NCBI GenBank assembly: GCA_965649765.1
Contig: OZ287749.1
Coordinates: 23,188,001-23,252,000, forward strand
Source: Bispira polyomma
Lineage: Eukaryota
Length of the DNA: 64,000 nt
Direction of reading: 5' to 3'
The notes beneath the pieces were generated by a model. The model had not been told where the DNA came from and did not search any database. It was given only the letters and a program-made list of their open reading frames with translations. Within the stretch, counting starts at the first letter, position 1. Each line of letters opens with the position of its first letter. Below, one piece after another: positions 4,361-46,352 of this stretch. The position numbers and the translations under genes were made by a program.

Positions 4361-4583
4361 GCCTTATGTGAAGGACAAACACACATTGTCACCAGATACA
4401 CATCCAAGACTTTGTCAACACCAAAAATACAATTTCTGGGAAGCTAGGGTTTCAATTAATTAGTTTGCGTCATTTGCAACTGATCTAGTTACATTTCTCT
4501 CTGAACACATGACAGATATTGAAAAAAACTAATAATACCATTAAAAATAATAGTAGAAAACAAAAAATTGTTACCTTCAAAAG

Positions 4584-5936
4584 ATGCTGCAAGTCAATTC
4601 AACCTCAACTTTAGGAGACATAGATGGGAATGAGAAATCGCCTGATTCACATGGAGACTTGTACAATGGATACTCAGAAGAATATGAAAGTGATGATGTA
4701 AATTCTTCAACCATGGACAGACACGGCATCAATAACACCTATTTCTATGATGACAGTGATTTAGTGAAGGTGGTCTACAGTTCTAAGATTGCCACCACTT
4801 GTTTGGGAGTTGCTTCTATTATATTGAACGTCTTCTTCCTGGTTGCAGTTCAGACGTCAAAGGAGAGGCATTCCCCGTTCCACAGGTTTATGAAAAGCCT
4901 GTCCATTGCGGACATTTTGGCATCTTTGATGTTCATGCTGACACAGAACTGGCCTGAGGGACCGTTTTCCTTCATCTACCCCTCTGACCACTTTCTGTTG
5001 AGCCAACTGGTGCCATACATCTTCCGCGGGATGCCCTGGATGTTCTTCACCTGCTACCTGCTGACGCTCACCTGCCTCAGCATCAACCAGTACGTAGCAG
5101 TATGCAAACCCTGGAAGTACTCCATGATCTCCAGTCAGAAGTGGGTCACTGGCACTCTCTGCTCTGTATGGCTTCTATCCTCACTACAGATCCTGATGCC
5201 CAGCTTAGTGCTGCTAATCCTGGGTTGTACTACAGACCGCAGTGTGGCCATCAGACGACTCTACACCATCTCGAAACTAGAGATGCAACTCTGGATGGGC
5301 ATCTTTATGGCGACCACCTTCATCAGTATTGTCCTAAACTTTTTGATCTACCGGAAAATTCGGGAACTGAAATGGAAACGGCGGATGAGTCTGACTTCGC
5401 AGGAAACTCTGAACATTCGGATGAAGCAGGAAGCATTTATTACCATCACTTTGTTGTTAGTTACCGCAGTGCTACTCAGACTTCCATTTCCCATAGTTAG
5501 CATCACCATCATAGAATTAGACATGGCAATGTTAATTGGACAGAAAACCTCGGTCATCACTAATGCAGTGGTGCTGTTCCTCCTATTCAGTAACTTCTTT
5601 ACAGATCCAATTATTTACACACTGAGGATGAAGGAAGCCCGGCAGCTGTATAAATGGTGTTTTTGCAAATGCTACTGTTGTGGCTGGACAGGTGAAAGGA
5701 ACGGATCACGGCCATTAAAACTGCAGCAGGATAAGAGGAAAGCTTTCTGTTGTAGTGCTAACAGAAGTTTTGACAACACTGATCCAAGGGCCAGAATGAG
5801 TCTGACAGGGGAGAGAACTGAGATTACTATGGCTTTGGTTGAAAATGGGAATAAGTATACCCAGGAGTCATTTGGACCATCTGAACTGGCCCATACCAAA
5901 GATCCTGAGAACAGTTCACCAGAACCATCACTGTGA
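4584..5936 (+). CDS. Class A (rhodopsin-like) orphan GPCR, 450 aa, intronless CDS
   Basis: Seven hydrophobic segments; N-terminal glycosylation sequons; TM1 IILN, TM2 LSIAD, TM3 NQYVAVCKP, TM4 Trp, TM7 DPIIY; Cys cluster after helix 8. Confidence 0.93.
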   Translation: MLQVNSTSTLGDIDGNEKSPDSHGDLYNGYSEEYESDDVNSSTMDRHGINNTYFYDDSDLVKVVYSSKIATTCLGVASIILNVFFLVAVQTSKERHSPFHRFMKSLSIADILASLMFMLTQNWPEGPFSFIYPSDHFLLSQLVPYIFRGMPWMFFTCYLLTLTCLSINQYVAVCKPWKYSMISSQKWVTGTLCSVWLLSSLQILMPSLVLLILGCTTDRSVAIRRLYTISKLEMQLWMGIFMATTFISIVLNFLIYRKIRELKWKRRMSLTSQETLNIRMKQEAFITITLLLVTAVLLRLPFPIVSITIIELDMAMLIGQKTSVITNAVVLFLLFSNFFTDPIIYTLRMKEARQLYKWCFCKCYCCGWTGERNGSRPLKLQQDKRKAFCCSANRSFDNTDPRARMSLTGERTEITMALVENGNKYTQESFGPSELAHTKDPENSSPEPSL

Positions 5937-7430: not shown

Positions 7431-8572
7431 CGCATAGTAACACTTTAATTGTCATTGGGAGAATATAACACGCCATTTCCCACAATTGGCAGAAATTAAA
7501 GATAAAGTACTATGGTAACAACATGTACATATCCCTAAGTGTAAATATGTTTATGGTCTTGTTTATTATACACAGATGCTAATTCTTAGATGTAGAGTGC
7601 ACTTTGATTTCCATACTGTAATTATGATACTGCGTTTATTTTTTTACTACAGTGTGTTCTTATCACATTCTGCTTGTAACTATTTCCAATAATTATATGG
7701 TGTACCTCAACGTTGGCAAATTTACTTAGTAGTTTTATTTGTTTAATTTTAGCTTATTTGGTTCTTTACATTTTGTGATGTTATTGTGTTCTGTAATGCA
7801 TTTCAGTTGTTACGTCAGATTTTGCTCTTTTATTGTTAAATAAAAAAAATTTCAAATGATATAATTATGTTGTTTTGCACTTTAAAAAAAAAATGGTAAT
7901 TAAGTTGTGGAATCTGTAAAAATGCTTATTAAAAGCTTCATGAAAAAGTTTAAAACACATCTGTATAAATTAGCTTTTCCGATTTAACATTCGTCTGCTG
8001 GTCACGACTGCACTCTGAAAAAAAAAAAGTTCCTTTTTGCGTTGGATTTAAAAGCCTTGTAAATATTTTATAGATGTTCCATATTAGCATGGAACAGTAT
8101 ATTTTACATTTTGTGTCAAATAAGTATAAAATAATAATTTTTTGCTGTAGATTGTCAGAATTGTTAAGTCAACCTACTAACCTGCTTAAGGCTATGCCAA
8201 ATAAAAATTTACCCAAGATAGTACCAGTTATGGGCAATTCATTCAACAACCATCTACTAGCTGTAATATAACCGGAAGTCACATTGTAGTTAATAAATTA
8301 AACTAAGGACAAAAACTAAATTGATGTGTGAGTGTATTAAAATTATTAATGTTTCTAAACCTGGAATAGTAACATATCTCAAGTGTCTATGCATTTGACT
8401 AAATGTAGAATTTAATTGTTAACTCTAGAGGATAGCATGGTGTTGAGGAGATATTGTCAGTTACATTATCACATACCATGTTATCCATGAAGTCCATGCT
8501 TGTAAGTGATGTCTGGAATACAATAAATGGAAATGAAAATATTGAAACTACAATTCCCTGTGCTACGGTTTT

Positions 8573-10720: not shown

Positions 10721-13700
10721 TTAAACATTTTAGGAACATTGCTGTTGCCATGCAGTTAGATATATGAATATATTTTCATTTCTTTATATAAAAAGTATGT
10801 GCCCTGTACCAAAGAAATGTAGTGTGATACTTTATTTCATGGTATCTGTGTGCACTATTCCATAGGTTTATTATAAGATGTGAGCTGATTTAAACCGGCA
10901 AGCAGTAAATGATGCAATTAGAAGGTTAAAAATTAAATCAAACGTCATAAACCTTTGCACAATGGCTTATATTATTCAGAACTAGCTTTACATGAATGCT
11001 TTATATGCTGCACATAATTACTAGTTTTATGATTTGCCATGATATGAAAAGTGACCTTTGGGATTCATATGAATTGTAATTATTCCACTTCTTTGCAAGA
11101 AAGTTAATAAAATATTTACGACATAAACATGAACATGACATTTCATATGAAGGATTCCCAAATGCCCCCATTTTTGTTGCAGTTGTCATGCAAGATTTTA
11201 GCTTATGTTTGAAAATGTGAATAGAATAGACTAACATTAAAGGACACCTCCATAGATATCTGTAACCATTAAATAATCAAAGTACCATATTATCAGCTTA
11301 TTTGATTTGGATTTTTTAACAGAACTTGCAACATATTTAGTCATATTGTTAAACCAATAGTAGTTATTCTGTAAAAAATCAATCTACCCCAATACCTCAC
11401 AAACTTTTCCACATGAAGGTAGCAATAGGATTGGTTCAACTTTCCTCAAAGGTGACATTAAAGCAGATGCTGAAAAGCACCCACCCTTATCTCTAAATGC
11501 ACCTTTTAGGGTTCCATTGCACCATCCAGGACTAATCACCAGGAGGAAGGGATTGTGATGTCCCACTCATCCATTTATATGTGGTAATGTCAACTTAGTA
11601 TGTCCAAAAAAATGTCTACAATTGCAAGGTCATGATCCCTTAAAACAAATATTCCAAGTCATCTGCTCAAATATCTAATTCTAGTAGTCTTTGGAGGTGA
11701 AACTTATTTTTCTAAACGGGCAATCAGTGTGCCAAATCAAAAACAATCATTAAACAAACAGTTGACAACTGAGGGACATAAAGGGGTCAGTCACCCAGAG
11801 AGATGTGATTTCGTGACCAGGAAAGGCTTAAGTGGATGCTAAGCTGATGCAAATAGGTGACTTTCTAAGTGACTTCTAAAAGAGGCCACAAACCAACTGA
11901 ATCTAATATGTGAAGGTAAATAATTTCCAAAAATAAACAATGTCAAACATTCTATGGAAGTACGGAACCTGAAGACAATTTAGCTTTTAGCAACTGTGTC
12001 TCATGTTTCTGACGGATGTGTAAGAGTGTAAAAGAACTTTACTTTATATGCTTATGGTATTCTGTCTTGTACAGACTCTTTTCAAATCTTCTCCTGTTAT
12101 TGTATAGTGAGATATATTCTGTACTGCAGCCACTTACGGTCTGAGTGAGTTCTGTCAGAGCATGTTATGAGAAAACTCTAATTGACCATGTCATAGGCTT
12201 TTAGAGACCAGATGATTTTGTTTTATCCTTCTTGTCTTTTCTAATTACATCATTGACTTTTCCTACACTTTCTATCTCATAATTTTAAATAAATTTTAAA
12301 TGTTTACTAAATATACAAAGTTTTTAAGAGTCACCTTTGTTGTTAATTATAGTTTGGGGGCAGTTATATTTTGCCGTCATACAAACTTTGTTAAAATGGT
12401 TGAAACATTTCATATAAAGCGATCATTTTAGACTAGACTTGTTTTCAAACATGCTCTTAGAAGCATTTTCATTCATGCTCAATGATGACATCATTAATTA
12501 ACCTAGTCAGATATATTTGGGGTTTTTAATGTTTTGTAATAGCAGAGGCATATTTTTGGAACTTGGCTATCACGACCATAGGATCTGATGTTTCAGTTCT
12601 TCCACATAATATATTATATCAACCTAAATCTCTGGGGGCCCAGTTGACCAAGTTTCACTCTCTCTATCTACCCACACACTTGACCATTCTCTTAGCAATA
12701 TCAGACTAGTCCTGATAAAAATAACCTTTGCTGTACATATAATTGCTAGAGTTATTAAATCTGCCCAAGCTGCTCCTGGTGGTGGTTGTCCCATTAGGAA
12801 GCAATTTCCCCCCTAAATCCTTACCATGCTGTTACCTTTCATCCATTTTTTGTGCATTGGCTATTACTATAAACACTATTAATAAGCTCATTAGAATCTA
12901 TGCTGTGCACATATAATAGCTAGTTATTAGTCTACCCATGCTGTTGCTCTTTATGACCTGGGGGTTCTCCCATTACCAATATTTACATCTTCTCTAATTC
13001 TTGAAGTTTGTAACTCAATGCTTTTATGTGGTTGTATTATTCTTATAATGTATTTCATGAAACGGCTTTAAGTATATTTGTCCTGGCAGATGAAAACAGA
13101 CTTGCTTTTTAGATATCAGAAGGCACGCTTTTTTAAAAGAAATTGATATTGTTCCTATGTAACTCTTTGGTTACTATTATCCAAGTCATTCTACCAGTGT
13201 GTAAAGCTCATACTTGTGAATGTTAATCAGAAAGAAACGTCTCAGCTAAATAAGTCATGAATAATTGAACAAGGGCACTGGTATGGACGTGTGGTGGCTG
13301 TTGTGTGGAACCTTATGATTAATTTTTATGACAGTACAAATAAAGGGATAAGATTACACATCTAATTACATTCACTTCCCATGTGTATGTGTGTGTTGCT
13401 GGGTGATTGCAAACAAATGCTCTTCTGATGATTAAAAGGGAATCTTATGTTTAACGTAGGGGTAAAATCAACAACGGTAGTGAAGCCAGAAAATATTAGT
13501 TAATCAGGTAGAGTTTCTAAGAATACAAAACACAATACTGTATTACCATCACAAATTGTACCAAAAAGTTGAGATATGATATGGCAGATAAACTTCTTCT
13601 AGTGTTGGGTTGACCTTAATTTCAATCATTATATAAACATCCAATCTTCTTCTAATTCTTGTTTACATTTCTGTCATAGTAAATGTGACACACAAATTAC

Positions 13701-15007
13701 AGTTACACTAATAAACACCTGTTTTAGGCAAAAGTTTTGGTTACTGTTATTTTTTATTTTTTTTGACACTCCCGACACCCCTGAGCCGAATAAGACATTA
13801 TATGAGGGTACATAATTTTATTATACATATATGTAAACATAAATACAATCTAAACTACTGTGTATATACATTTCTTGATTTCATCATACAAAAATCTTTA
13901 AATGTGCATAATACTGATTTAAGTTATCGTGCTAAATTTTTATAAGTTAAGGTCATCTTAAATTGTTGTAAGTTAAGGTCATCTTTACTTATTGTTTATA
14001 AAGTTTTAGTTTTTGCTTAAGGTGATCCTACGTTTAGGGTCCAATTTGTAAAGATTTAAGTTATAAATTAAGGTGACCCTACCTCGAGGGTCCATTTTAG
14101 TATTTAACTTAAAGTGAACGATGTCCGAAATTAAACCTAAGATGACCATAGCTTGCACATCAACATATAAAATTTAACTTGTATAGATCATGTGAACATA
14201 TATAATGAACCTCAATACTGATACTTAAAAGACTAAAATGCAGTAATGTAAAAACAATTGATAAGTTGGTTGTGTGTAAATGTTGATTTCCTCTTAAGGT
14301 TTTACAGCAACAAAAAACTTTATAGTTATATCAAGTCTTCTAGGCCCATTTGCATCAGAAGGTGCTTTTTTGCAAATGTCCAGTTTGGTTTAGACTCTAC
14401 TGTCCTACAAAGTTGTTCAGAATATCAATGGTAAATCTATTGTACAAAGACCACGACCTTGTCTGAAGGACAATACATAGTAAATGGTCAGAATGTAAAG
14501 AACTGTTGTGAAGTTGCTAAATGGTTATCCTTAAGCATCTATCTTCATTTAGTGATATGACAGGTAATGCTGCTGGTTAGCTATACTTTGGCAATTCAGA
14601 AAAGGTAATTCAGAGCTTGAGTCCAACAGTGCATGGAGATACTGTACTGAGTATAAAAGTACAATCTATCCATCTGATCGAACTTTTGTAGTGCCTTATC
14701 TCTATTAAGGCGAATTCTAACGCGCATATTACATGATCATATTCGATTCCTCTTCTGTAAAGTAGTTCTATCTCAGGAGACGCCGGAATCAATATGCGAC
14801 TAGGGAGGGAAAGCCTTGAAAAACAAATAGATCTTAAGTTTGCCTTTAAAGGATGACTAGGTGGGAGCAGCACAAATTTCTTGTGGCAGACTGTTCTATA
14901 ATTTTTGTGCACTGTAGAAGAAACTGATCGATTTGGATTTGTGAATTAAAGGTGAGTAGACTGGAACCTGAAGGAAAACCTTACTGCGCCTTGTTTGGGC
15001 TTGGCAT

Positions 15008-15170
15008 GTGTATCTAGACAAATTGCATTACTTCACCAATGATGTAGGCAATGGATCTACCATACAGAATTTGCATACAGAATTTGGTTGGAGATCCCTT
15101 GGCAAAATTCAAAACATCTTCCTCTGTGACATTAGCAAAAGCTGTCAAAGAAACAATCTCAATGAAAAAC
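15008..15170 (+). pseudogene. Possible decayed 3' fragment of a LINE ORF2
   Basis: STIQNLHTEFGWRSL resembles the LxxELGWxSL motif found after RT in CR1/L2-type LINEs; short and degenerate. Confidence 0.3.
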
Positions 15171-17851
15171 TGTTTCTTATGTCTTTAATTTTATCAATGA
15201 AAAAGTAGCCAAAGTGATTGGCCAGAGACTTATTGGAAGAGAATGATGGGTAGACAGCTTCAGGGGGGGTGGGGCGTGAATAACATTTTCAAGAGCATTT
15301 GGGACACTGCAATTCATAACATGCTGTACACTAACAGCAAATGATAATAAAATGCCTCTGTTTTGCCATATGTAAATTGTTGAATTATTATATGGGCAAA
15401 TTTTGTCTAATGCGTGAGCATATGATACACAAATATTCAAAGCGTGTTGCAGTCTCCATGATAGAATAATTTCAGTTACAAAGACAAACGCCTCTGGTCT
15501 GTTAAAGTTATTTTTTTGTTACAGTTGTTTTATTTGTCAGGATGAAGAAGAAGCCAAATACTAGATCTTCAATGAGTAATCTAAAAAAAATGATCTTTTC
15601 TTACAACACCCTTTTCTATCTGTCCAGGAAATCTGACCAGTTTTTTATTTTGTGGGACTCCTACATTAGAGAAATAGCAGCAGACTTCATTAGCATATTG
15701 TCATAAAGTTGTCATGGCATGTCAGAAATAAAAGCACTTCTAACTGGTGGTTCTGGAGATAAAGCCAAAGATATGTAGCTTTCTATTTATAGCAACAGCC
15801 CTCTTTTTATATAGAATTAACATAATATGGATGTCTTGGACATGGAAAATGGACAAACAAATAAAACCTTAGACAAAGGGTAATGATATATGTTGGCAAT
15901 GGGTGAATATATTTAATTTCTGGACATAAACAAGCCTTTGCAGTCTAATATGGTGTTTTTACCTCATATACCAGTTCATTAGAAACGTGTTATGTGGCAA
16001 AATCAGTAAAGATATCCCTGAAAGGCATATGTATAGAAAAAAAACTATCAATTACAAGCCCACATTGAAATATAACAGAAACTCAAAGGTCAAGGTGAGA
16101 AGGTAAGTTTAAGTAACATTAAGTAAAACATTGAAAAAATCCTGACAGTTGGCCACTACCTAATTTAGAGACTCACGCTCAAGGCTTTTGTTCACTCTTA
16201 GTCATTATTAGTTATTGGACCAGTTGTGCCTATGGGTATGCAAGCAACATACGACAGGTTTTGCTACTACAATCACTCAGCATCAGTCAGCGATCATGTA
16301 TAATCTACCGAACTTCTTCCAAGTGAAAGCAAATAGTCCTACAATACAAACAACCTGTCAGTAGCCAGTCGGAGACCACCAAGTTCCACCACTAACCAGA
16401 TTGTTACCATTGGGAGGTGATTTGCCACCAATCGGCCACTGCTTGGCTACCGCTCTCCCACCTTTAAAATACCTCCTGTGATTGTTTGAGGTATGCACTC
16501 TACTGTGAGGTCTGCCAATTATTTCTCCTGGAAACTTATATTCATACCCCCAATCTAGTGTTGTCTGCAGTGATCTATCACAAATATTAGCATGACAGTT
16601 GTAAAATTTCGCAAAACAGGTCTGCAATGATCTTACAACTGGGTGTACTATAATCACTCATCAGAATATATATGTGACTGCTGTTTAGATCTGGGGAATG
16701 AATTCTCAGGTAGTCACTGGTGGTCTCACCTTTGGGGGATTGCAGATGGTTTCTAGAAGATCACAGGTTTTGTGTGTGACTGCAGTTAGTGGATAAAGAT
16801 GACTGTGTTAATACCATGTTGTGATATCTCGTGTTCCCTCTTAACTCTGCGGGACAAAAATAATACCTCGATGAGATTTGACATCAATCCAGTTTTTAAT
16901 AATTCAAAATGTTTGCAAAAATGGGATGGCAGTTTAATAAAGGGTGAACAAGACATGAGACATTGGGTTAATAAAAAGTATAAAGGTAGTCTTCAGCCAT
17001 AGTAAGGCGAACTAAAATGTCAGGAAATGAAATAATACTCAAATATGTGACTGGACAAATCAGGAAAAACACCCATATGCCAACAGAAAATGAACCAAAC
17101 TTAACAGTTTTTACAAATAAGCTTCATTCATGTCCATATCTGTTTGTGTACCACGGAATACAGCAGTGTGTGTGACTGAACAAATGTGGCACAGCACTAT
17201 AATATACATTCAAGTTATTTATATCAGGAAAGACACCTATCTGCAAAAAAGAAAATCAACAAAGCTTAACAGTTTATACAAATAAGCCTAATACATGTCC
17301 TTGTTTGTTTGAGTACCAACTCCAAAGTTTTGACAATGTTTCCACTTTTTTAGTACAACAACTTGTTTGTTGTTGACTTCCTCTTTTGAGATGCTCACTT
17401 GTATGTTTATAACATCGAATTTGAATAACATTATAGATTCCCAATGACAACTGATTACTTTGAAATAATCTTAAAGATGCATATGTTACTGTGAAAGCTA
17501 TGAACACATCATTTATTAAAATCCCATATGTGATAACTTCACTAAATTAGCACAAATAGCCAGACACAAAAAAAGCCCAATAGCTGAGCGGTTCTGATCA
17601 ATAAATAGATGGCACAAATTAGGTTCATATCATGTTTCTTCATTTGAATATTACAATTAACTCAGCTTTTGATAACAGATATTGTTATTAAGTCTCAGTG
17701 ATAATTCATCGTTTTCATTGGTTGATACAGGATCACATGACATGTTATGTACCATGGGCCCTCAGACTGCAGTAAATCTCATGTAACCATTTGGGAAATA
17801 GTGATGTGTACTAGTTATTGATATTATGGGCTATTTTATAACTATGTTTAT

Positions 17852-18989: not shown

Positions 18990-19300
18990 AGGAGTAAAAA
19001 ATCCAAACCGGTGTTTTATGTTCATTTTAAATGATCGATAAGGTTGGTGTAATGCACGAACCCCACAGATTGCTAATGCTGTTTGGGATAATTTTATTTA
19101 CAAATTCCATGGATTTGAAAATATTTTCATCTACATAATAATTTTTGGATTTAAAATTTTTTAAATGCCAACACAAGGCTACTTGTTCATAAAAAAAAGG
19201 ATATACCTAAAAGGTATATTTACATAAAATAAGAATATACATAAAACGTATATCAGACACTTTGCCACATAAATAGATATACTTGTTCATACATAGGACT
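18990..19300 (-). mobile_element. Remnant of a Ngaro-like element 3' end (B repeat plus part of the spacer)
   Basis: Contains the B hallmarks ATGCTGTTTGGGATAATTTTATT and TTTTTTAAATGCCA, followed by ..GGCTAC as in E1 and E4. Boundaries approximate. Confidence 0.6.
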
Positions 19301-20986
19301 ACTCGTCAGTAATGATTTACTTTACTTACCTTACTTTCTATATTATTCATTATCATTCTTGCAATATAGTTACAGTCAAAGTGACCGTTGGGATTTATAT
19401 ATGTTGTTGTAATTATTCTACTTCTTTTCCAAAAAAGGTAATAAAATATTCACAAGTTTTAGCTGATATTTAAAGCATAATAGAACAAAATGAAAGTAAA
19501 CCTCCATAGATATCTCTGACCATTGAATGATCTGATTATTAAATCTTCAGCTTATTTATTTTGTTTGGATCTTTTAATAAAACTTGCAACATATTAGGTC
19601 ATATTGCAAAACCAGTAGTAGTTATACTGTAAACAATCAAACTACCGTCAACACAAACTTTCCCACATGAAGGCAGCGGAATGATTGGTGCAACTTTCAT
19701 CAAATGTGTTATTAAAAGCAGATGCTGATAAGCACTCACCCTTATCCCCAACTGCACCTGTTAGGATTCTAATGCACCCTCTGGAACTAATCACCAGGAG
19801 AAAGGGGTGATGTTCCACTTAGCGCCTTTATGTAACAGGGGGGAAGAATGAGGTGGAGCATGCTGTCTTGCACTAATTAAGGTGGTAGCCTCATCCTCCT
19901 TGTTTCCAAAAACTCTACTGGCTAGAACCGGCCTGCTGTATAAAGCACTGCCACCTCTGACAGCACCCATTCAGGTGCTCTATCAATTTATATATAATAA
20001 TGTCAACTCAGTATGTCTATAATAATGTCTGGGTCACTGTGGTCACAAATATTCCAAGTCATCTGCTCAAATATCTAATTCTAATAGTCTTTGGAGGTGA
20101 AACTTATTCTTCTAAACGGGCAATCAGTGTGCCAAATCAAAAATAATCATTAAACAAACAGTTGACAACTAAGGCACATAAAAGGGTCAGTCACCCAGAG
20201 AGATATGATTTTGTGACCAAGAAAGGCTTAAGTGGGGTAAGCTGATGCAAATTGGTGACCTTCTAAGTGAGTTCCGAAGGAGGAAACATGCGAACTAGAT
20301 CTCACAAAGGTAAATAATTCCTAAAAATGAAACAATATTAAACATTCTATGAAAGTAAGGAAATTAAAAACACTTCAGCTTTTGCCAACTGTGACTCATG
20401 TTTCTAAGGATGTGTAAGAGTCGAGGGTGTCCTTGAAATAGACTGCATGTATGAAACCAGTTTGAATTGAAGTTTAACTAAAACCAATGTATAGGTGGAT
20501 CCAGGATTTTGAAAGAGGGGGATATTTTTTTTTCGAATATATTGTGAAAATAATTTCGCACTCACTGCAATATTTTTAAGCCATGGTTAGATAAAACAGT
20601 AAAAAGAGATTTGCTGTGCGTGCTATTATAGTTTTATAAAGAAAAATCCTGTTTTCGAATTCAAAAGGATTATGGTGCCGCATTTACCACATTATAGTAA
20701 GGGGAGTCTAAGTAGCTTCATCTGTGTATATGTCACGATGGTTCCATGCCTCCAGTCTCCTTTAACCTCACAGCATATCTCATAACTGGTGGGACGTTGG
20801 AGGTCTTAGCACAACTTCCAATAAATTTCTATTTTTTACCCTTAAGTCCATTCTAGTGTATAGCTATGCATATCGAAGTGTAATTCAATTTATTATAAGT
20901 TCCAATTAGATACATGGGTAGGACAACAAGTGTGACAAGATGGCTCACAATTATTTGGAATTACAGACTCATATGGATATACTACA

Positions 20987-21140
20987 AAGTCAAAGTTAGG
21001 GTTTTTACGTCCGGTTCAACAGCCAGGGTCATATTGGGACAGGCCCACAACATTTGTCACTTGTGGGAGGCGAACCCACACAGAGGTGACAGCCTGTGAT
21101 TAGATGCCAGACTTGCTAACCACTCGGCCACTGAGGACCC
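20987..21140 (-). mobile_element. Short tRNA-derived SINE with 13-bp TSD
   Basis: A box TGGCCGAGTGG, B-box-like GGTTCGCCTCCC, (ACTTTG) tail; TGGATATACTACA at 20974..20986 and 21141..21153. Confidence 0.88.
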
Positions 21141-21460
21141 TGGATATACTACAGATGCCCTCACAAGGATACTGTTGGCACCAGAAAGTGAAAAGAATTA
21201 TTCTAACAACTGGTCACAGCAGCTTTGCTTTATATACTTATCGTTTTCTGTCCTGTACAGACTCTCCTTTCAAACCACCTTCTATTATTGTATAGTGAGA
21301 TATATTCTGTACTGCAGCCGCTTACATTCTGAGTGAGTTCTGTCAAAGCATGTTATTAAAAGACCCTAATTGACCATGTTAGAGAATAGGCTTTTAGTGA
21401 CCAGATGATTTTGTTTTATCCTTCTTATTTTTTCCAATTACATCGTTGACTTTTTCTACA

Positions 21461-21643
21461 CAGTCGTTTAAGTTGTGGGTGAAATTGAACCAATGTTGTC
21501 CTGGGCTAGGGGTGACCTTTAAAGGTCATAGTTATTGAGAGTGAGGAATCAGATGCTGTTTGGGATAATTTTTATTCTAACTACTCGTCTCTATATACAA
21601 CTGTACAAAAAATCATTTTTGATTAAAAATTTTTAAAATGCCA
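21461..21643 (-). repeat. E1 repeat B2
   Basis: Near-identical to 22438..22619; AATAAA on the minus strand. Confidence 0.95.
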
Positions 21644-22009
21644 TCATGGCTACATGAACAAGAACCAAGAACTGGCTAAAATACGAAAGGGGGTAAAAAT
21701 AACCCTGAAAGCATGTAAAGTGCTAAGATAAAAGTCAACCACCTAATTGGGCGACATAAAGTTGAGTACTACAACAAATAATATATATCGCCAACCACGT
21801 ACAAGGTGGGACATAAACAATAATACTAAGTCAAATGACATAAGATTACGTACTACAATAATAGATATAGTCGACCACATAAAGGTGACATATATAGTAG
21901 TAGTCAACCACGCATTCGGGCGACAAAATAACTCAGAATATCAGAGTTCAGAAGAGTAAAATAAGTTAGTGATTACTGGCTAAGGAATTTTGTTTTAAAA
22001 TTTAAATAT

Positions 22010-22151
22010 GAATGGGAGCTCGAAACGCTGGGCACCTATTCGCCTGCAGAAAGTCCTACCTCACAGAGCTCTTTTTCAACCCTGGAACCCTAAACGTGAA
22101 CTCAGAGGAAGGGTAAGAGATAAGACTTTCCACATGGTTAATGAGCTTCAT
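22010..22151 (-). ncRNA. Putative structured RNA in the E1 spacer
   Basis: 14-bp stem GAAAGUCUUAUCUC/GAGGUAGGACUUUC (2 G-U pairs on minus), inner ACCCU/AGGGU, loop GAGUUC complementary to downstream GAGCUC, and CUGC-AGGCGAAUAGGUGCC shared with E2 and E4. Confidence 0.6.
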
Positions 22152-22215
22152 CTAAGTCCGAAAAATTTAAATTCACTTTAACTTTAGCCTGTAAAAAGAG
22201 GAGTGGTGGGTGGGG

Positions 22216-22437
22216 ATTTCAAGGTGTTGCTACATTAACTTGCAACTTAATAATGACCAAATGTGAGAAAGGCGGGAAATTGATTTAAACCTAAGGGATT
22301 TGATTGGTAGTGAAGTGAAAGAGGTTCTGGTCTAGGATTGGTGTATCTGGGTAAACAATTCTTAAGTAGGTAAATAATACAGTAAGATATTACAACTTCA
22401 CGACTGACTAGCCATGCTTTGCGAGCAGTGACTACAA
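22216..22437 (-). repeat. E1 repeat A2 (abuts B1, forming the circle-junction sequence)
   Basis: Near-identical to 27680..27902. Confidence 0.95.
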
Positions 22438-27509: not shown

Positions 27510-27679
27510 AATAAGATATCCAATACAAAAGGCACACTATAAGATGACAGAAGTTAAAACTGACTAAAATCACTAAACGTAAACGTAAAATAATGTCTAA
27601 TAAATATAAAATAAGCTTGTTTCCATTCGCGCAATCACTTATTTCCAATATGGCAGCTCTATTTGCCGATTCCAATGTA

Positions 27680-27902: not shown

Positions 27903-30843
27903 CTTTCTATCTCATAATTTTAAATAACTTTTTAAATGTTAACTAAATTTAAGATTGATGTAAACTCAATCTACCTCAAAATTAGGGCCACCTTCTATTG
28001 AACTCAGCTTAAGTTAGAGTCAACATCGTTTAAACATATACAAAGATTTTGAGAGTCACCGTTGTTGATAATTATAGTTTGGGGGCAATAACATTTTGCT
28101 GTCATACAAACTTTGTTATAATGGTTGGATCTTTTCAAAAACAGTGATTTGGACTAGACTTGTTTCAAAACATGCTCTTAGAAACATTTTCGTTCCTGCT
28201 CAAAGATGACATCATTATTAACCTAGTCAGATATGTTTTTGGTTTTTAATAATGTTTTGTAACAGCAGAGGTGTATTTGGCGAATTTAGCCATCACGACC
28301 ATAGAGGGGTCTGATTTTTTAGTTTGCCCTATTACAAAATATATTATATCAACCTTAATCCCTGGGGTCCAATTGACCAAGTTTCACTCTGTCTATCCAC
28401 CCACACACTTAACCATTCTCTTAAAAATATCAGGCTACTCCTGATTGAAAAAAACCCTCTGCTATTCACATATTTGTGAGAGTTATTAAATCTACCCATG
28501 CTGTTCCTGGTAGTGTTCCTGGTCCCATTAAGAAACAATGTTCATATTTCCCCCTAATTCCAACCCATTGTGTTACCTTTCACCCATTTCTATTGCATTG
28601 GCCATTACTATGTACACTATCAACAAGCTAATTAGTATCTTTGCTGTGCACACATAATTGCTAGAGTTATTAGTCTGCCCATGCTGGTCATCTTTATGAC
28701 CTGGTGGTTCTCCCATTAATAAACAATGTTCATATTTCTTCTAAATCTTAAACTCTGTATCTCAATGCTTTAATGTGGTTAGATTATTCTGATAATGTAC
28801 TTCAAGCTCTTAGTATATTTGTCATATGTGTGAGAATATTGTCATTCTGAGCTGACGGATAAAAACCAGACTTAGTTTTCAGATATCAGAAGCAACTCTT
28901 TTTAATAAAAATTGACCTTGTTCCCATGTAAGTCTTAGGTGGAGAAAAACTATTATCCAAGTCGTTCTACCAGTGTGTGAAGCTCATACTAGTAAATCTT
29001 AATCAGAAAGAAATATCTCAGCTAAACAAGTCAAGAGTAATTGAACAGGGGCACTGGTATGGACGTGTGTTTGTTGTGTGGAACCTAATGATTAATTTTT
29101 ATGACAGTACAAATAAAGGGATAAGATTACACATTCCAATTACCTTCACTTTTCCTTTGTATGTCTGTGTTTCTCGGTGTCTGCTAACAAATTATCGTCT
29201 GATCATTAAAACTAAATCTTATGTTTAACATTGGAGATAAAATCAACGGTAGTAAAGCCAAAAATATTAGTTATTTAGGTATATTTTTGAAGAATACAAA
29301 ACACAATACTGTATTACCATTGCACATTGTACATAAAGGTTGAGATATGGTGTAGCTGATCAACTCCTTATACCTTTTGACCTTAAGTCAAATCTTTATA
29401 TAAACATCCAATCTTCTGCTGATTCTTGTTCACATTCCTGCAAAAGTAAATGTGACACACAAATCATAGTTACACTAATAAACTCCTGTCTTGGGCAAAG
29501 TTTTGGTTACAGTTATTTTTGAATTTCTTCTGATAACAGATTCACGAGCTTTTACGGGAAAAAAACCTCTATAGTTATATTAAGTTTTCTGGGCCTATAT
29601 GCATCAGGGGGTAATTGTTTCTCAAAGATTTCATGTCCAGTATCCATTTCATTTCAGTGCAATTCTAATATTAAACTGGACCCTGATTTTAGGTATTGGT
29701 TAATTCGTTGCAGTATAAGATACACAATTTTGTGGAATTGGATTAAAGTGTCCTGTACAACGACCTTGTTTAAATGAGAATACATGTAAATGTTCAGAAT
29801 TAAAACCTTAATAATTGTCATGCAGGTTAAAACTAATATGATGTTTATAGGCAAGGATTTGTTTTTTCTCCATTGGATTTTTATTTACTCATTTTTCACA
29901 TCAGTGCGAGAATCTGGGAGGGCGAGGGTAGTCAACCCTCCATCAGATCTTTTTTACAAGTGCAGTATTGTTATAAATTCTTTAACAACATTTAAAAAAC
30001 TATATTAAGCTCTCCGCAATTGCATACCACTAAATTGGCCTTGGGGTAAGAAACATGGACTACCTAATTTTTTATATACTATATGCTGAACCTATTCAAC
30101 TCACCATAAGTGGCAAGGATTTTTGGCCCTTATCCCCAATGGTGGGCTAGCAAACCTTTGTGAGAATGCTAAGATATACTCAAGCATTTCTTCACTTAGT
30201 GGGATGCCAGTTAATGGTGCTCATTGGCTGTACTTTTGCAAATTGAGAAAAGGTAAATTAGAGCTCTGTGCCCTACCGTGCCTGGAGGTACTGTACTGGG
30301 TATACAGGTACAGTGCAATTATTAACATGCTGTAAACGGAGAGCAAATGATAATATAGTGTCTTAGAGGACTTTTCATCACTTTTATACTCGTTTAATTA
30401 TTTTTAACGTTATATGGGCCTAATGCATGAGAATAACATATATAGATATCCAAAGCTTGTTGCAATCTCCAAAGAAACAAATATCAGTTATCAAGACAAA
30501 CATAAAAATAATCACTTTAGGAAAAGTAATTTTGAGCCTAAGGTATGTTCTAATTTCTGTCCAGTCGTTTGCTGTTATACTGGTTTACTTGTCGGGGTGA
30601 AAAAAGAAGTCAAATGCCTGGTATTTTAGCTGCCTTCATGTTTTTAATAGACTGACATTGTGTATTATAATGAATACATGCCGGATGATGTATCTAAGAA
30701 ACTAATACAAATACACTAGGTATCTCCAGGTAAATTAAGTTATAAAAAACCCAGGGGCGATATTCAGCAAACGTCTCAGTCTTAACTTAGTCCTAAAGAT
30801 TTTGGTCTTTGTTTTTTGACTGACAAGGTTACGATTTTTGTCT

Positions 30844-31859
30844 CAGTCGCTTTCAAAAGTGGGTATATGACCTTTAAGGTCAGAAGTGATGACCTTGCAG
30901 GTTAGGAATTATGATTGTGACCTTGAGTTGATCAATTTGATGCAGTTTGGGACAAATTATTTTGTCATCAAAATTTCTATATACAGCTCTATGCAAAAAT
31001 TTTAAGGTTAAAATTTTTAGAAAATGCCTGTCATATAAACATGGCAAGTAATTACTTGGGGTGTAAGTTCCCCTTACAAATAAAATAATAAAATTACTTT
31101 AAAACATGCCTTATAGCAAGTATGGCCAACCTAGGCCTATGACAAGTAGTAAATATTAAGAACATTTATATTAGGCATACGTAAGCCTTGTAAATAAAAT
31201 GTTACTAAGCATACGGCTTGATGTGAGTTCTTGTACTCAAGTATTATTTGTGGTATGTGCTAAACGCTAATATATGTGTTTTCAAGATGGCCGTTGTACA
31301 GCCTACATTTATGTCAAGATTGGCTGTCTTACAGCTTGTAAGTGATGAGCCATTTGTGGTTTCAGGTAACTTTGCTGTTTGCCAGTACATTATGTTTAGT
31401 GATAAGTCAATTTCTATCTCAAACAAAATCTCCACCCAGATTGGAACCCGGGTCCTATGGCACCTATTCGTGTAGCAGTGAAGGCCCTCAGCTGCAGAGC
31501 TTTAATCGCCGGTAGCCCACACCAGGGGGTAGCTGCATGCTGAGGACCAGCACCACATGGATCCGGGGTCGGATCTGTTGGTTTGGACACGTGAGATATA
31601 TATAAAGACAAGTTTCTCGACCATACTAAGTTAAGGGTGGTGGGTAGGGTCAAATTTTTACTTGTTGTCTCGTTGCTTTCAAAGTTTATAATGCTAACAT
31701 AAAGGGAAAGGCGGGAAATCACCCAGGAATCGAAGTATTTGATTGGTCTTAATCTGCCAACTAATTGGCTTTAGGTTGGTATACAAATAATCTTACAGTA
31801 CACTTCTACTTTTTAGCGCCTGAAATGCCATGCAGACTTAATGTCTGCAGTGACGTTCA
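30844..31859 (-). mobile_element. E2: solo A-spacer-B unit of a Ngaro-like element (no ORFs)
   Basis: Starts CAGTCG like E1; B motifs GATGCAGTTTGGG and AAAATGCC; structured core closely matching E4; G-rich tract; GGCGGGAAA and CCAAT; ends GCAGTGACGTTCA. Confidence 0.85.
31444..31570 (-). ncRNA. Putative structured RNA in the E2 spacer
   Basis: Aligns without gaps to 60010..60136, with compensatory and G-U-preserving changes in the stems. Confidence 0.7.
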
Positions 31860-32761
31860 TAGTCCCAGTGACAGTAAAATATACTTTCTCAGTGTTAACA
31901 CTGAGACAGTAGGCAGTCTCAAATATTTTAGACATAAATGGTAAGCTTTAGACTAAGGTAAGAGTAAAACCTTTTCTTTATACGACCCCAAGTAATTTAG
32001 AAAAGAGGGAATTTTCTTACAATTCCCATTTTTTTTTTTCTTTCCAGGAAATCTGACCACTTTCACCTTTTGTGTGACTGTTACATTAGAGGAATAGCAG
32101 CAGAATTTATGAAAGTTGCCATGGCAGCAAGAAAATGTCACAAATAAAAGCATTTCTAACTGGTGGTTCTGGAGATAAAACCAAAGATATGTAGCTTTCT
32201 GTTTATTGCAACAGTCCTCTTTCAATATAGAAGTAAAGTAATAAATATACCTTGGACATAGAAAAGGGGACCAAGAAAAAAACCTTGGACAAAGGGTGAT
32301 GCTATATTGTTGGCAATAGGTCGTTTTTTTAATTTCTGGACCCAAGCAAGCCTTTGCATTTTTATATGGCTTTTTAAAACTTATACTAATGAGAACGTGC
32401 GATGTAGTAAAATCAGTTAAGGTATCATTAACAGGCATAAATGTAGGATATAACTGTCAATCACACACCCACATTAAAATTTAACTAAAGGTCCAAGGTC
32501 AAGATGAGAAGGTAAGTTGAAGTGACATTAGTAAAACTTGGAATAAAATACTGACAGGTCTGCCACTGATCTTACAAGCTCCCATCAGGATATATATCTG
32601 ACTGCTATTGAGATCTGGGGCTGATGTCTTTGGTATTTACTGGTGGTATCACCTTTGTGGGGAGGGGGGGGGGGGGGTGTGCAGGTGGTCTCTATGAGAT
32701 TGAAGGTCCTGTGTGACTAGGATTAGTGAATAAAGGTCACTGTGTTAATGTTGTGATGTCT

Positions 32762-32995
32762 GGGGCCATATTCTCGAGGGTATACTTAGGTCCAACTCAT
32801 ACTCAACTCACATCTGGATTTTCTACAACCATGGATACAGTAAACATATCTAAAATTTGACTCCATATTTAAATTCAGTGTTAAAAATTATATTGAAATT
32901 AATTGTCACATGTATAGATTATTTCCATGTACTTGGAATTGCACACACCAGTTGAGTTGAGTATAAGTTTAAGCATTTTTTGAGAATACCAAGCC
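32762..32995. mobile_element. MITE-like insertion
   Basis: Imperfect inverted ends (TATTCTC..ATACTCAACTCA / TGAGTTGAGTAT..GAGAATA); absent from duplicate copy A. Confidence 0.55.
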
Positions 32996-34823
32996 TAGTG
33001 ATCACTCCCAAGCCCTGCAGGGGACAAAAATAAGACCTTAATGAGATTTGACATGAATCCAGTTTGTGACATTTCAACATGATTTTAGTTCTCAAAAGTG
33101 GAAGAGCGGCTTTATAAAGGGTGAATAAGACATGAGGCATTGAGTTATTAAAAGCATAAAAGTAACCTTAAACTGTAGTAAGGTGAACTAAGATGTCAGG
33201 AAATAAAAGAATACTGACATCCAAGTTAGTTATATCAGGAAAAATACCCATCCGCAAAGAGAATATTGTTGGTGTCCATGCTTTATTGTGACAGACAAAA
33301 GTTAGATCTACAATATAATTTGTACAAAAAATTATTAAATATAATAAATCAGTTGAAGGGAATGATTACCATTAAAAAGATGGCAAACTACATTCAGGAG
33401 TTTTATTCATGAATATCATAAATGCTTCTATGGCCCTTAAAGCTGCTGTAGGTCAATTACAGTGAATCACCTCATGCCAACAAACCGAACAGCCCTTCAT
33501 ATGCTGCCTGATTGCTTCTATTTCCACAGCACGTCACCAGAAGGATTTTGGACACAAAGTGACACTTTCACTCAGCCAGTTATCCCTGTAAATAACAATT
33601 GTCCATTATTGAACATAAAAAACTCATACTAGAATAATATGACTTAGTTATAGTTCATTACCCATAATGGCGCTCAAGATCAGATTCAGGATGGAGAAAG
33701 GAAATGTGACCTGTAGGCTAGAAGTAATGAGATAAATTGGGCTTTCTGTACAAGCAAGTATTTACATGGAAAAAGTTTATTCCACTTAGACTTTCCCCAT
33801 ATAAAAAGTACGGTTATTTGTAATATATATATACATAAAAATATCAAACACCATCTTCTTCTTATAATAACATGTCTCACTAAGTTTTTCATTTAATGTT
33901 TGCAAAAGGGGGAGGGGGGGAGAACAAAAAGTTAATTAATGTGTCATTTTTGAGTTACATGTTAGCCTATAATACTGCACATTATTGGTTGAATTTTTTG
34001 GTTGAATAGAATAAATGGATTGCTTATTTATAAATGTATTCCATCCATTGTGTAATTTGGTTATTAATATTTCACTTTAAGGTTATCCTACATCCAAACT
34101 AGTGAATGTCGTACAACTCTTTCAGTGCACAGGCACCATCATCAAGTGATTATTACTGACAGGTACAACTTCAACAACAAGATGAATAATTCAATGGATA
34201 TTATGATGTATTTCTAATAAGTTTCTTACAAACAATAATGAGCTTCACAGCAGATACTTGGCACTCCTATTTAAGAGGGTGGCCAATGAGTTATATAAAC
34301 AGTCACTGACTTTGCTAGTAACTGTATTTGCAATGTAAAATGTTTATGGACTTTCCCTGTTTTTTTGGTGTGTGTTGTTTTCGTGACCAAGGGTCATGGG
34401 AGAAAAAAAAGCAATTACCTACCTCATAACCGGGGAGTTTACAATGAGAATTTTTTTTTTTTGCTTTTGACACCAAAGTAATGTTAATAGAGTGTCCTGT
34501 CTTATAAACGAAAAAAGCCCTTAAAGATATATTGACATCACTTCAGTACATATACTTCATAACAGAACTAGAACATGAGCACAGAGTAGAGTATACACCT
34601 CCGACATATAATACAAAATATGAAAAGCTGATAGAATGAGTAGATGAAAAACTATTTTGGATCTGAATCTGCTCTAAAATTTAATGTATTTCTTGACCCA
34701 TGCCCTAGCCCTATTGTTATTATAAAGTGTATTTAATTTTCTACATAATTGAATTTAGTTGAGTTTTACGTAGACCAAGTTTTCTGCCACCAATGACGGA
34801 CGTATAGCTGATTGGCGACAGAG

Positions 34824-35330: not shown

Positions 35331-37294
35331 CATATGATAGTGTATTACTAAATAATGATTTTAATTGTTGCGCCTTAGAGCCAGCCAGTACGGAGATTAA
35401 GCGCCATTACGAAATTGATTAGATTAGATGATGATAAGACCCCCGATGTGGCGGTGTACGAATAAATAGTACTAATGGGTGACAGGATACAGTGATTACT
35501 GCACAAGGCACAATTTGATGATGATTCTTTGGTCAAAAAGGATAATAACTAGAATATAATCAGTAACAATTCACATATAAGTCTGTTTAAAGCTTTTAAG
35601 AGTAATATTACTCTGATTATGGTACCTCTACTCCTTAATGCATCCATCTAGAGTGCTAATTAATGCATTTACAACCCTTGCTTGGTCTTATTACAAATGT
35701 CATTGAATTTTAAACTAAGTTATTTATTTTAAGTTTCAGAATGACCCAGCTATTCAGATTTGCAAAAATGATAAAAAAAGTGATATATTTATGTACAATT
35801 ATTCTGCTAAATCATGTTTATTATAAGGTACATGAGTTTTAATTATTCTATTATCTTATTGCCTATTCTCTTCAGAGAACCAAAACCATTGTATTTTTTT
35901 GTGGCAAAATAATGCCCCAGCATTTACCCCCAGCATTTACCAGGGAAATCAAATTCATTCTGAATTTACTAATGTCAATCTATCCGTATCAATTGGACAC
36001 AAATTAATTGCATGTTCGTGATTTACTTCTGAATCCCGGGAGAGTATTTCCCTTTTATATTGCAGCATGAAGGTGGCTCATTCACAAGATGAAAGGGTTC
36101 ATGACCCTTAGTTGGTAATTACTGTCCTACCAAAAGAAAGTGATGTAGAAAAAAATGTCACATTAAATATCATGGGGGGTCTCACAGTTAATAGCTGTAC
36201 CATTTAACTTTTCGGGAACCCGTCCTCATGCCTTTACAATATACCTAAGTTTGAAAACTTAAATTTGTTTGGAAAAACTGATTCAAAGATTTAAAATGCT
36301 CCAATCTCCTGTTTTTATTGCCATGGCAAATGACAAATAAACTGCTTACTCACAGAGTAGAATATTTGAGCTCAATGCTAATCCGAATACTATTAAGTAG
36401 TTTCTGCGGTAGTTTTTCTTGCAAGCTAGTTAATTTGTCAAATAATTTTTTTTGGGTTAATCCCCATGGTCATGTGTCTTTCTCATTCTATACCATTGGT
36501 AACTACGGAACTTAAAGTTCAGCATTTTAGTATTTGCATGAACATAATTTTAGTCCATATTTAATTTCTCCTAATTCACAAATACTCACCTGATAGTCAA
36601 ACTGTATTTATAATTAAAAGTCACTTGGAACCATTTATAATGGGAAAATAATCGAGTCCACTACCATATTACATTTTACTGCAGTGGTTAAGCCAATGCT
36701 ATAACGTATTAATGTAATCTATGTTGCCATTGCTGGAAGAAGTTTTACTCAAAGTCTTAGTTGAGAATTGTTTGTGTCTCTGAATAATCACCTGGACGAC
36801 ATATATGGTGGAAGTCAATATAATGGGGTAAAATGTGCTCATTCTACCAAATTAAAATCTTTACAGAACAAAACTAAATATAAGAGTAAAATCAAATAAC
36901 CCAGAAAGTAACAATATGGGGCAATTCAAGAAAAGGCACTCCCTGGTTAGCTTTGCTTTACTCTGGGAGTAATTCTGGTGTCTTTCATTTATACCTTTAA
37001 TAAAATCTTTGTAACTACTAAGTGTCAGCTGTCACTAAAAACATCGGTAATTAATTAGTGACAAGTTTCTTATCTAAAATTGTGTTCTTCTTGACATTCA
37101 TTAATTTTTGGTAAACAATTATTTTAAGAACGCGCAATTGAATTAATATACTTTAGTTAAAACAAATATTCTACAATAAACATCAATAATAGCTGATATG
37201 TAATAGTGGTGGTGAAATAATGAGTTTATTGATGTTGCAGTGGCACATGGTTTCAGTCACAACCACCAGTTTAGTCAACCTTAACACCCCCCTC

Positions 37295-37770
37295 TACCCA
37301 ACTCCTTGCTCTGTCTGAGGTCACCCTTAAACATTTCACCCCCTCTAGTTATACCCCCTTTCTCTCAATCTTTATCTCTCTCCCCTACCCAACTCTTACC
37401 TCTGTCTGAGATCATCCTCAAACATTTCACCCCCATCTAATTATACCCTCTTTCTCCCAGTTTTTAGTCTTTCCTACCCAACTCCTTGCTCTGTCTGAGG
37501 TCACCCTTAAACATTTCACCCCCTTTAGTTATACCCCCTTTCTCTCAACTTCTACTCTCCCCTACCCGACTCTTACCTCTGTCTGAGGTCACCCTTAAAC
37601 ATTTCACCCCCCTTTAGTTATACCCCCTTTCTCTTAACCTTTACTCTCCCCTAGCCGACTCTTACCTCTGTCTGAGGTCACATTAAACATTTCACCCCAT
37701 CTAGTTATACCCTCTTTCAACCTTTATAAATCTCCCCTACCCAACTCTTACCTCTTTCTGCGGTCACTTT
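37295..37770. repeat. Minisatellite, ~88-bp unit, 5 full copies plus a partial
   Basis: Units start near 37295, 37385, 37474, 37562, 37651 and 37737 (CTACCCAACTC..CTCTGTCTGAGGTCACCCTTAAACATTTCACCCC). Confidence 0.92.
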
Positions 37771-38546
37771 TAAATTTAATTCACTTACTTCCCATGTTTA
37801 TTTACAATTCATCTCCTTTTTAGTGTAATACTTTAAGTTTAAGTTATCCTTTAATTACTTATGGTTTTCTAAACCTTTGAATTACTCACTTCAGTAATTT
37901 ATCTGTTTCCTTTTCTTCCACTTCTGGTTCTTCAGGGGGCAAATAGACCTGGCCGATTTTGTTTCCGAATCCGTCATCTCCTTTCTGCTGTCTGTATAAA
38001 CTCCCCTTTCTGTACTTCTGGTTCATAAGTAAATATGCACTAAAATGCTGTCAGATTTTTCCCCACCCTGTTGTTACAGTGTTACTATTAATTACTTTGT
38101 AATCTGTGCATATGTGTCATAACTATAGCATTGTAATATACTGGTATTACAATTTAGTTTAACTAGTGTTATAATTAGGTTAATAAGGGTTAATCATCAT
38201 TGTATTGCATTAATAACTTGTGACTCACTAGTTACAATTGTAACTTACAATTGTAACTTTAAGTGTTTTAGTACTTTATTAGAGTAAGAGATTTTCCCCT
38301 CACTTTAAATTTTATTTATTTCTTTTATAAATTAAGTACACTGTGTTGCTATTTTATTGTTATAATCAAATTATATGTTTATTTAATAAATGGTAGTAGC
38401 CTAACACTTGGTTCCTTATTCAACTTGTTTCTCTTCGCTTGTATTACCTGAACCAAAAATATGACCATCTTGGTTTATCATTTCATCTTTAGCCACTCCT
38501 GTTATACTAACTTTAGTGTCGCCTATTTCAACCTCTCATACTTCCT

Positions 38547-45728: not shown

Positions 45729-46352
45729 TATTTTAAGATTGTTATTTGTATTTTGTGTCAGGTTCAAGTCCAGCGGGTGCACTGCTTACCACGTTAGCTT
45801 GTGACAGATTGCATACAGCCTTTGCTACGTCCACTTGGAAGGCCCACAGCAGTATGTTCAGGCTCTTTCTGGCCTTTAACATTTTCATGGATTGGCAGAT
45901 AAATCAGGTGAATGCGTCCCAATTACTTGCTTACTTGGAGTTCCTTAATTTTAACAGCGTCACCCCTTCCTACATATCTAACCACTTGGCAGCTATTAAG
46001 GCCAAGTTTAATTTGTTTCAACTAAAAACTGAGGTGTTCTCAGACGCTAGAATTGCCTATTACACAAAGGCCTTATTGGTAAATAGACCTCTTAAAGTGA
46101 AACTAAAAAGTTTATTTGACATTCTCCTGCTCTTGAACCTTATTCAGCCAGTCTATGTCACAAGCCTATGAGTGTGACCTTCAAGCCAGGTAAGGTTAAC
46201 TCTGATGCGTGATCAGTGGATGGTTGACCTTGGATGTTGGAAAAGACTCTGACTCTGTTTGGGATATTTATTTTAAGGCATAAAGTTTTTGCCTCTATAT
46301 ACACAAATTTTTAAGCCATGTTAAAATTAAAAAAGGAATGCCAAAGCCAAAA

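Follow-up and report, generated by a model that had tools for sequence, protein, structure and literature searches.

Ngaro elements belong to the order DIRS and are described, for Xenopus DIRS-53_XT and Cafeteria Ngaro1-4, with gag, RT/RH and YR genes and with split direct repeats in the order A1..B1A2..B2 (PMC8547959, PMC9210276, PMC3783388). Their published 3′ end is written B1A2B2, and the word ‘spacer’ does not occur in the main texts of PMC8547959, PMC9210276, PMC4157794 and PMC6681497, whose supplementary element tables may list spacers. For the solo copies of Cafeteria, recombination between repeats is the origin proposed in the account of these elements (PMC8547959). Unique sequence between A2 and B2 is described for Pat1-like elements in their nematode form and Kangaroo, whose YR gene lies in this interval and which also have a methyltransferase; Pat1-like, Kangaroo and, by description, the related PAT have internal repeats before YR (PMC4157794). 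SIRE of VIPER in Trypanosoma cruzi is described as A2, a unique interior of about 30 bp and B2 alone (PMC6681497). In the inverted-repeat element DIRS-1 of Dictyostelium, the ICR is reported to be an internal template for the circle junction that is essential in cis, and the primer is stated there to be unknown (PMC7192593).

We analysed a stretch of 64,000 nt (the window) and searched the 1.04-Gb genome of Bispira polyomma, from which it comes. The window contains four related Ngaro-type elements (E1–E4), all on the minus strand (Table 1). E1 is complete in the order A1-gag-RT/RH-YR-B1-A2-spacer-B2, with frames broken by stops. Like the described Ngaro elements, those of Bispira have gag, RT/RH and YR on one strand, split direct repeats and solo AB units, which the descriptions attribute to interior loss; they differ from the published B1A2B2 end in a spacer of 41–947 nt between A2 and B2, with a fixed C-rich tract (C-tract) and an optional structured domain (PMC8547959, PMC9210276, PMC3783388). 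They share an occupied A2–B2 interval with Pat1-like elements and Kangaroo, but in Bispira the interval is non-coding and no methyltransferase domain was found (PMC4157794). The solo unit E2 resembles SIRE, except that the interiors measure 400–620 nt in the Bispira elements and that the Bispira solos give no sign of amplification of their own (PMC6681497). The B1–A2 junction is the counterpart of the DIRS-1 ICR, with direct instead of inverted repeats (PMC7192593).

Table 1. Parts of the Ngaro-type elements E1–E4 in the window (positions are window coordinates)
Feature	Position	Strand	Details
A1, 5′ repeat of E1	27902-27680	minus	CCAAT 27806 and 27772, GC box 27741, TATA-like 27718
CCATNTT motif, downstream of A1 only	27645..27654	minus	
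gag, RT/RH and YR frames of E1	27536-22628	minus	broken by stops and frameshifts
B1 of E1	22619-22438	minus	AATAAA 22552-22547; GACTG end at the B1–A2 junction
A2 of E1	22437-22216	minus	CCAAT 22341 and 22307, GC box 22276, TATA-like 22254
Spacer of E1	22215-21644	minus	572 nt, ORF-free
C-rich tract adjoining the A2 3′ edge, E1	22203..22215	minus	G-rich on opposite strand
Covarying structured domain of E1	22160-22006	minus	
Degenerate family-specific repeats, 3′ half of E1 spacer	21730..21930	minus	short GTC/GAC palindromes
Border hairpins of E1	GGG..CCC 21705-21689; GCCA-n3-TGGC 21650-21640	minus	TGTA word directly before B2
B2, 3′ repeat of E1	21643-21461	minus	AATAAA 21576-21571
E2, solo A-spacer-B unit of another family, no ORFs	~31860-30844	minus	spacer 31649-31029 (~620 nt); domain 31583-31434
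E3, A-ORFs-B element without A2-spacer-B2	~52052-46149	minus	sits in YR of an older plus-strand element
E4 3′ set: B1, A2, 407-nt spacer, B2	60587-59610	minus	domain 60149-60000; element runs past the window end

Its domains and the order of its repeats class E1 as a Ngaro-type tyrosine-recombinase retrotransposon, a placement by layout; the YR tree covers YRs of the Bispira polyomma genome. Pfam matches to RVT_1, RVT_3 and Phage_integrase (below the curated cut-offs for E1) together with a tblastn map give the order gag, RT/RH, YR on one strand. With Pfam, neither the E1 and E4 pieces nor the 900-aa pol of E3 gave a methyltransferase family, and RT/RH stops where YR starts. The repeat copies of E1 are 98.7% (A1/A2) and 97.9% (B1/B2) identical, and the sequence where B1 meets A2 agrees with that of both host junctions (junction table, 18 families). 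Local segmental duplications of about 70–87% identity (11048-17091 versus 19378-21461 plus 28036-33266; 53224-54627 versus 58667-59609) supply empty sites for E1 and E4, and comparison with the empty paralogue at 12268-12311 shows that E1 inserted without a target duplication. The older element interrupted by E3 is Ngaro-like, belongs to a second YR clade and lies on the plus strand at about 42740-46170 and 52130-52620, its YR split by E3. Elsewhere in the window we observed a remnant like the first half of a B repeat, without A or ORFs (~19075-19175); a very high-copy short interspersed repeat adjoining E1 (21003-21139), with a summed contig depth thousands of times that of the flank; a 459-codon plus-strand open frame for a rhodopsin-family 7-transmembrane receptor (4557-5936); an 89-bp tandem array (37270-37777); and a nested element, about 1.4 kb long, with inverted repeats (38547-39948). 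ARAGORN found no tRNA gene, the 21003-21139 repeat included. The contigs of three sequencing runs give even coverage of the unique flanks and behave like DNA.

A preliminary description of this locus had read A2-spacer-B2 as a second, non-coding transcription unit, so that the element would make one mRNA and one dedicated ncRNA. Its measurements all hold. The positions that it gave, 21461 and 22437, are the exact end of B2 and start of A2, and A2 and B2 are parted by a spacer at the three places named (exactly 572 nt in E1, 407 nt in E4 and about 620 nt in E2). There is no sense ORF; ATG frames on the element strand reach 45 codons at most in A2-spacer-B2 of E1. E1 holds all parts of the layout, E2 has no ORFs and E3 has no A2-spacer-B2. 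The spacer, which had been called unique, is family-specific in its 3′ half, while its 5′ part is structurally conserved across families.

For a wider survey we took 60 stretches around YR matches from the 300 matches listed, with long open frames preferred. All four repeats were present in 27 of the 60, and these fell into 14 families (<90% nucleotide identity over the YR end); four later elements brought the set to 18 family representatives. A spacer separates A2 from B2 in all 27 four-repeat loci and in 18/18 representatives. The shortest (41 nt) belongs to an element with an internally deleted B2, and lengths of 72 and 86 nt were measured in elements whose repeats are 95–98% identical. The full relatives of E3 have a spacer of 175 nt without the structured domain.

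The promoter-like words claimed earlier for the A repeat are, in E1, a pair of CCAAT boxes, one GC box and a TATA-like word, with every upstream A1 motif also held by A2. Among the 11 closest families, the A repeat has CCAAT-like words in 10, a GC box 61–68 nt before the A end in six and a TATA-like word 39–45 nt before the A end in seven. From this spacing, transcription would start about 10–15 nt before the A end. AATAAA likewise recurs, in both B copies of E1 and in the B repeat of 16/18 representatives. Of the regulatory frame that the preliminary description saw in both A1-ORFs-B1 and A2-spacer-B2, the upstream motifs and AATAAA are present in each. The identity of these motifs follows from templating: regeneration of the ends requires A2 and B2 to be copies of A1 and B1, so their motifs are not independent evidence of use. 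The words outside the repeats are distributed unequally. CCATNTT, which we take to be YY1-like, lies within 60 nt after A1 in 9/18 families and after A2 in 0/18, and TGTA, presumably CFIm-like, lies within 70 nt before B2 in 13/18 families (6.9 expected by shuffling) versus 2/18 before B1. Such a distribution agrees with RNA that starts mainly at A1 and ends mainly at B2, which means read-through. The border hairpins, supposed to be conserved by position, are both present in E1 but recur in a minority of families: GCCR-n-TGGC in 5/18, and GGG..CCC in 7/18, all seven among the 11 closest (shuffling expectation 0–3% per family). We also found a donor-like GGTAAG in gag (E1 26767-26760) and an acceptor-like YAG before YR (E1 ~23610), with corresponding sites in E3, E4 and other families; the gag donor-like site is present in 7/7 spacer-type or E3 elements. 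These donor-like and acceptor-like motifs suggest a spliced gag–YR mRNA.

The spacer opens with the C-tract in 18/18 families. The tract has 9–12 C in 14 nt and starts −3 to +5 nt from the A2 end in 17/18 families and at +11 in the remaining one, and it is kept across families whose YR identity falls to about 35%. The best 14-nt window after A1 has only 2–6 C in the 18 families, and in 14/18 no other 14-mer anywhere in the element is as rich in C as the C-tract. The opposite strand scores 1.2–2.45 on a G4Hunter-type scale. The simplest reading of a tract that abuts the repeat edge in such distant families would be that it defines the A boundary during copying. No sense-strand partner or primer for the tract, as in self-priming, was found in the element, the best helices being scattered and 6–10 bp long. 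In L329 (oriented 7950-7975), the sole full copy of its family, a TATA-like word stands directly after the C-tract.

In E1, E2 and E4 the spacers can be aligned over their 5′ parts, which take a common shape with differing stem sequences. This domain of about 130 nt comprises an outer stem, a three-way junction bearing a short hairpin (E1 22044-22031) of about 4–5 bp, a long stem and an upper junction with a GCTCTG strand (E1 ~22069-22064). In a MAFFT alignment of 14 diverse copies, 92.5% of cells pair, 20/36 pairs have two-sided changes and 76 cells are changed on both sides versus 29.8 when shuffled, while slid controls pair at 38–49%; in 35 model-aligned copies the values are 94.9%, 23/36 and 199 versus 70 cells, all counts being over related sequences with the structure derived from (14 copies) or fitted to (35 copies) the same alignment. 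The stems vary and covary, the junction nucleotides are invariant, and most invariant bases are paired. Folding z-scores against shuffles are −1.1 for E1 (weak), −2.6 for E2 and −4.0 for E4. Over the 35 copies they average −3.0 for the sense and −3.2 for the antisense strand and so do not separate the strands; we assign the domain to the element sense strand because of near-invariant G–U pairs (35/35, 33/35 and 31/35 copies). Within the E1 family, diversity per 40 nt is 0.015–0.037 in the domain bins, about as conserved as YR, and rises to as much as 0.11 across the spacer's 3′ half; the whole spacer (0.059) is more diverse than YR (0.043). The strongly covarying spacer fold most likely acts as RNA. 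The GCTCTG hairpin can form in 29/35 copies, a competing 7-bp upstream partner is available in 15/35 and both are in 13/35, so the upper arm may be a structural switch.

Rfam covariance models gave no relevant match in the window (E≤5) or on two domain copies (E≤10). An HDV-like reading was dropped because the would-be P2 strand has no partner, and a hammerhead reading because no hammerhead core is conserved across families; both comparisons were made by eye. In its three-way junction and adjacent short hairpin, the domain resembles CR4/5 with P6.1 of telomerase RNA, an RT-associated RNA, and a few of its letters seemed to us like CR4/5. P6.1 is described as having 4 bp in its stem and 5 nt in its loop (PMC4993307). 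The domain has a 5-bp stem with loops of 7–11 nt or longer and no Rfam telomerase match, and we rejected identity with CR4/5. On the minus strand of L169, upstream of an unrelated full element, are two divergent tandem domain copies without the GCTCTG arm, at 450-606 (35 bits) and 294-409 (10 bits). The L154 family has, where the domain would be, a repeated unit with ATTGG and CCATATT words, and families differ in their degenerate tandem repeats. A different conserved spacer block occurs in the second YR clade (L192, L193, L195 and 21 genome places; 21 pattern matches versus 0 for the control; 7/50 loci). It contains a short hairpin with exchanged G–U pairs, and some of its words are reminiscent of twister-sister ribozymes.

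We then located the domain across families. It is in the spacer in 9/18, between RT/RH and YR in 2/18, both of them distant, and absent from 7/18; it is thus not present as conserved RNA content in all families and cannot be a universal packaging signal. No comparably stable fold was found in 120-nt windows of the spacers of the domain-less families. A short domain pattern matches 1,125 places in the genome versus 6 for the reversed control. Among the first 30 of these places, 27 are model matches: 10 between B copies behind YR, one between B copies, five behind a recognisable A, seven behind a C-tract (by eye) and four between the RT/RH stop and YR. None of the 27 lies outside an element context. 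The carriers of the RT/RH–YR domain have RTs 30–44% identical to that of E3, and no A repeat stands in front of the domain. An acceptor-like YAG follows it in 7/7 loci, and a donor-like GGTAAG stands in gag in 4/7, whereas the corresponding place of the other 3/7 showed none, so this domain is predicted to lie inside the intron. In these two distant families, A2 and B2 are kept at 2/14 loci, with spacers of 41 and 103 nt that have the C-tract and lack the domain. In either position, the domain would be carried solely by RNA that escapes splicing and continues past B1.

The domain tree and the YR tree disagree. Domains are 85–89% identical at 34–48% YR identity and 66% identical at 82% YR identity, with a Spearman coefficient of 0.14 over 120 non-independent pairs. 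Moreover, four of the seven domain-less families are nested among carriers and have A/B copies 93–98% identical. This conflict and the nested non-carriers call for exchange between families or for strong selection on one subtype; it is likely that the domain was swapped and moved between families. The domain model gave no match in 30 YR loci from metagenomes (best E 1.8), on 6 viral pattern matches (best 11.8 bits) or among the 80 matches listed of 104 prokaryotic pattern matches (best 13 bits); among eukaryotes the search covered the Bispira polyomma genome.

Copies with only one half of the element are of two types. Solo A-spacer-B copies make up 4/30 of the E1 family, 4/21 of the E4 family and 7/13 of the E2 family, the last with 5 loci left out as incomplete and 2 as overlapping. 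The solos are dispersed among full copies in the three family trees (4, 4 and 5 changes versus 3.9, 3.8 and 4.6 when shuffled), with no sign of a self-amplifying solo lineage in the E1, E4 or E2 tree. Copies of the A-ORFs-B type account for 15/40 closest-clade loci (10 by script and 5 by eye, with one script assignment re-read as a full 3′ end and one locus ambiguous) and for 12/14 loci in the two distant families. Both types can arise by repeat–repeat recombination or by the copying route. The order A-spacer-B-A-ORFs-B, with A after B2, occurs in 0/64 units, and for this reason bipartite integration of two circles was rejected. At L018 we observed a copy with tandem YR end-B-A repeats before the spacer.

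On balance we lean towards the spacer being a cis signal region on an A1-to-B2 read-through RNA, in which the C-tract fixes the A edge and the domain marks the genomic RNA for packaging or RT loading. Transcription would start near the 3′ end of A1, and RNAs that stop at B1 or are spliced from gag to YR would serve as mRNAs. The unspliced RNA reading through B1 to B2 would be the genomic RNA, the sole RNA holding the B–A junction from which both ends could be rebuilt. An A1-to-B1 RNA and an A2-to-B2 RNA would both lack this junction, so that a read-through RNA would be required anyway. The C-tract would set the 3′ boundary of A as the priming site of minus-strand DNA, in place of the primer-binding site behind a 5′ LTR; alternatively, being G-rich on the minus cDNA, it could halt plus-strand synthesis there before the jump. 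Priming at the tract would copy A2 and B1 and, after a jump to B2, give a full element, and a failed jump would leave A-ORFs-B. The folded domain would mark the genomic RNA much as retroviral psi does, and a short A2-to-B2 transcript could arise as a by-product. The U5-PBS-psi leader of retroviruses also has a short fixed signal at the 3′ edge of a repeat and, behind it, a structured region that is restricted to the unspliced genomic RNA. The likeness would be one of working, since in Bispira the tract is C-rich and not complementary to a tRNA 3′ end, stands behind an internal repeat and is followed by a domain that is optional.

We consider a dedicated second transcript less likely than this role in cis. 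Such an ncRNA, of about 0.5–0.8 kb, would start in A2, end in B2 and act in trans as an RT-bound RNA subunit or a primer donor; we think this unlikely, although several features suit it. A2 has the CCAAT-like, GC-box and TATA-like words in the proportions given for the closest families, B2 has AATAAA and an upstream TGTA more often than B1, the spacer is ORF-free with a covarying fold, and elements without A2-spacer-B2 are as common as a trans helper would allow. By analogy, the A2 upstream motifs together with the internal repeats before YR in Pat1-like, Kangaroo and PAT suggest that an A repeat within the element can act as promoter for a second unit. Against it, the identity of the A2 motifs is that of templating, the downstream A1 motif is absent after A2, spacers of 72 and 86 nt accompany nearly identical repeats, and the fold is missing from seven families and elsewhere sits at a site without an A repeat. 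The dispersal of the solos and the absence of the permuted order also argue against it. Somewhat more doubtful still is a bolder combination, in which the C-tract would be the primer site of split-repeat YR elements and the domain a portable RT-loading RNA, exchanged among distant families, that A2 also releases as a short RNA; replication would then use an RNA subunit as in retrons or telomerase, and the A-ORFs-B daughters would be a direct product of tract priming.

Two other functions for the domain seem improbable to us. Ribozymes occur in other retrotransposon groups, and the domain could be a ribozyme of an undescribed class that cleaves or ligates itself and, by cutting the read-through RNA, yields either an RNA with terminal redundancy or a primer end. 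The compact portable fold, its variable covarying stems and invariant junction nucleotides, and its exchange between families and positions are compatible with this, but no Rfam ribozyme matched at E up to 5–10, the invariant bases are mostly paired, and an unregulated cut within the predicted intron or the spacer would ruin the genomic RNA. We give as little weight to a nuclear-export or stability element for intron-retaining RNA, modelled on the CTE/RTE elements of simple retroviruses and IAP: it would account for an optional and portable domain whose two positions are confined to unspliced or read-through RNA, but it has no likeness in sequence or in Rfam and leaves the C-tract unexplained. 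That the spacer is neutral filler with a hitch-hiking parasitic insert is very improbable, since its wide length range, its diversity above that of YR in the E1 family and the patchy distribution of the domain are set against a C-tract at a fixed place in 18/18 families, domain bins conserved about like YR, compensatory changes across families and 0/27 model matches outside elements.

Among papers listed for Ngaro ribozymes, polypurine tracts or primer binding sites, and secondary structure, none on the C-tract or the fold was found, and the original Ngaro papers and Repbase reports may describe the spacer; so far as this literature search reaches, the C-tract and the portable fold are undescribed. 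The cis signal region that we favour addresses how reverse transcription is primed and how the genomic RNA is chosen in elements of the DIRS order. A C-tract fixed at the A2 edge in every family examined predicts the exact position of a cDNA end, and the abundant mobile RNA fold would offer a defined substrate for tests of binding, cleavage and packaging.
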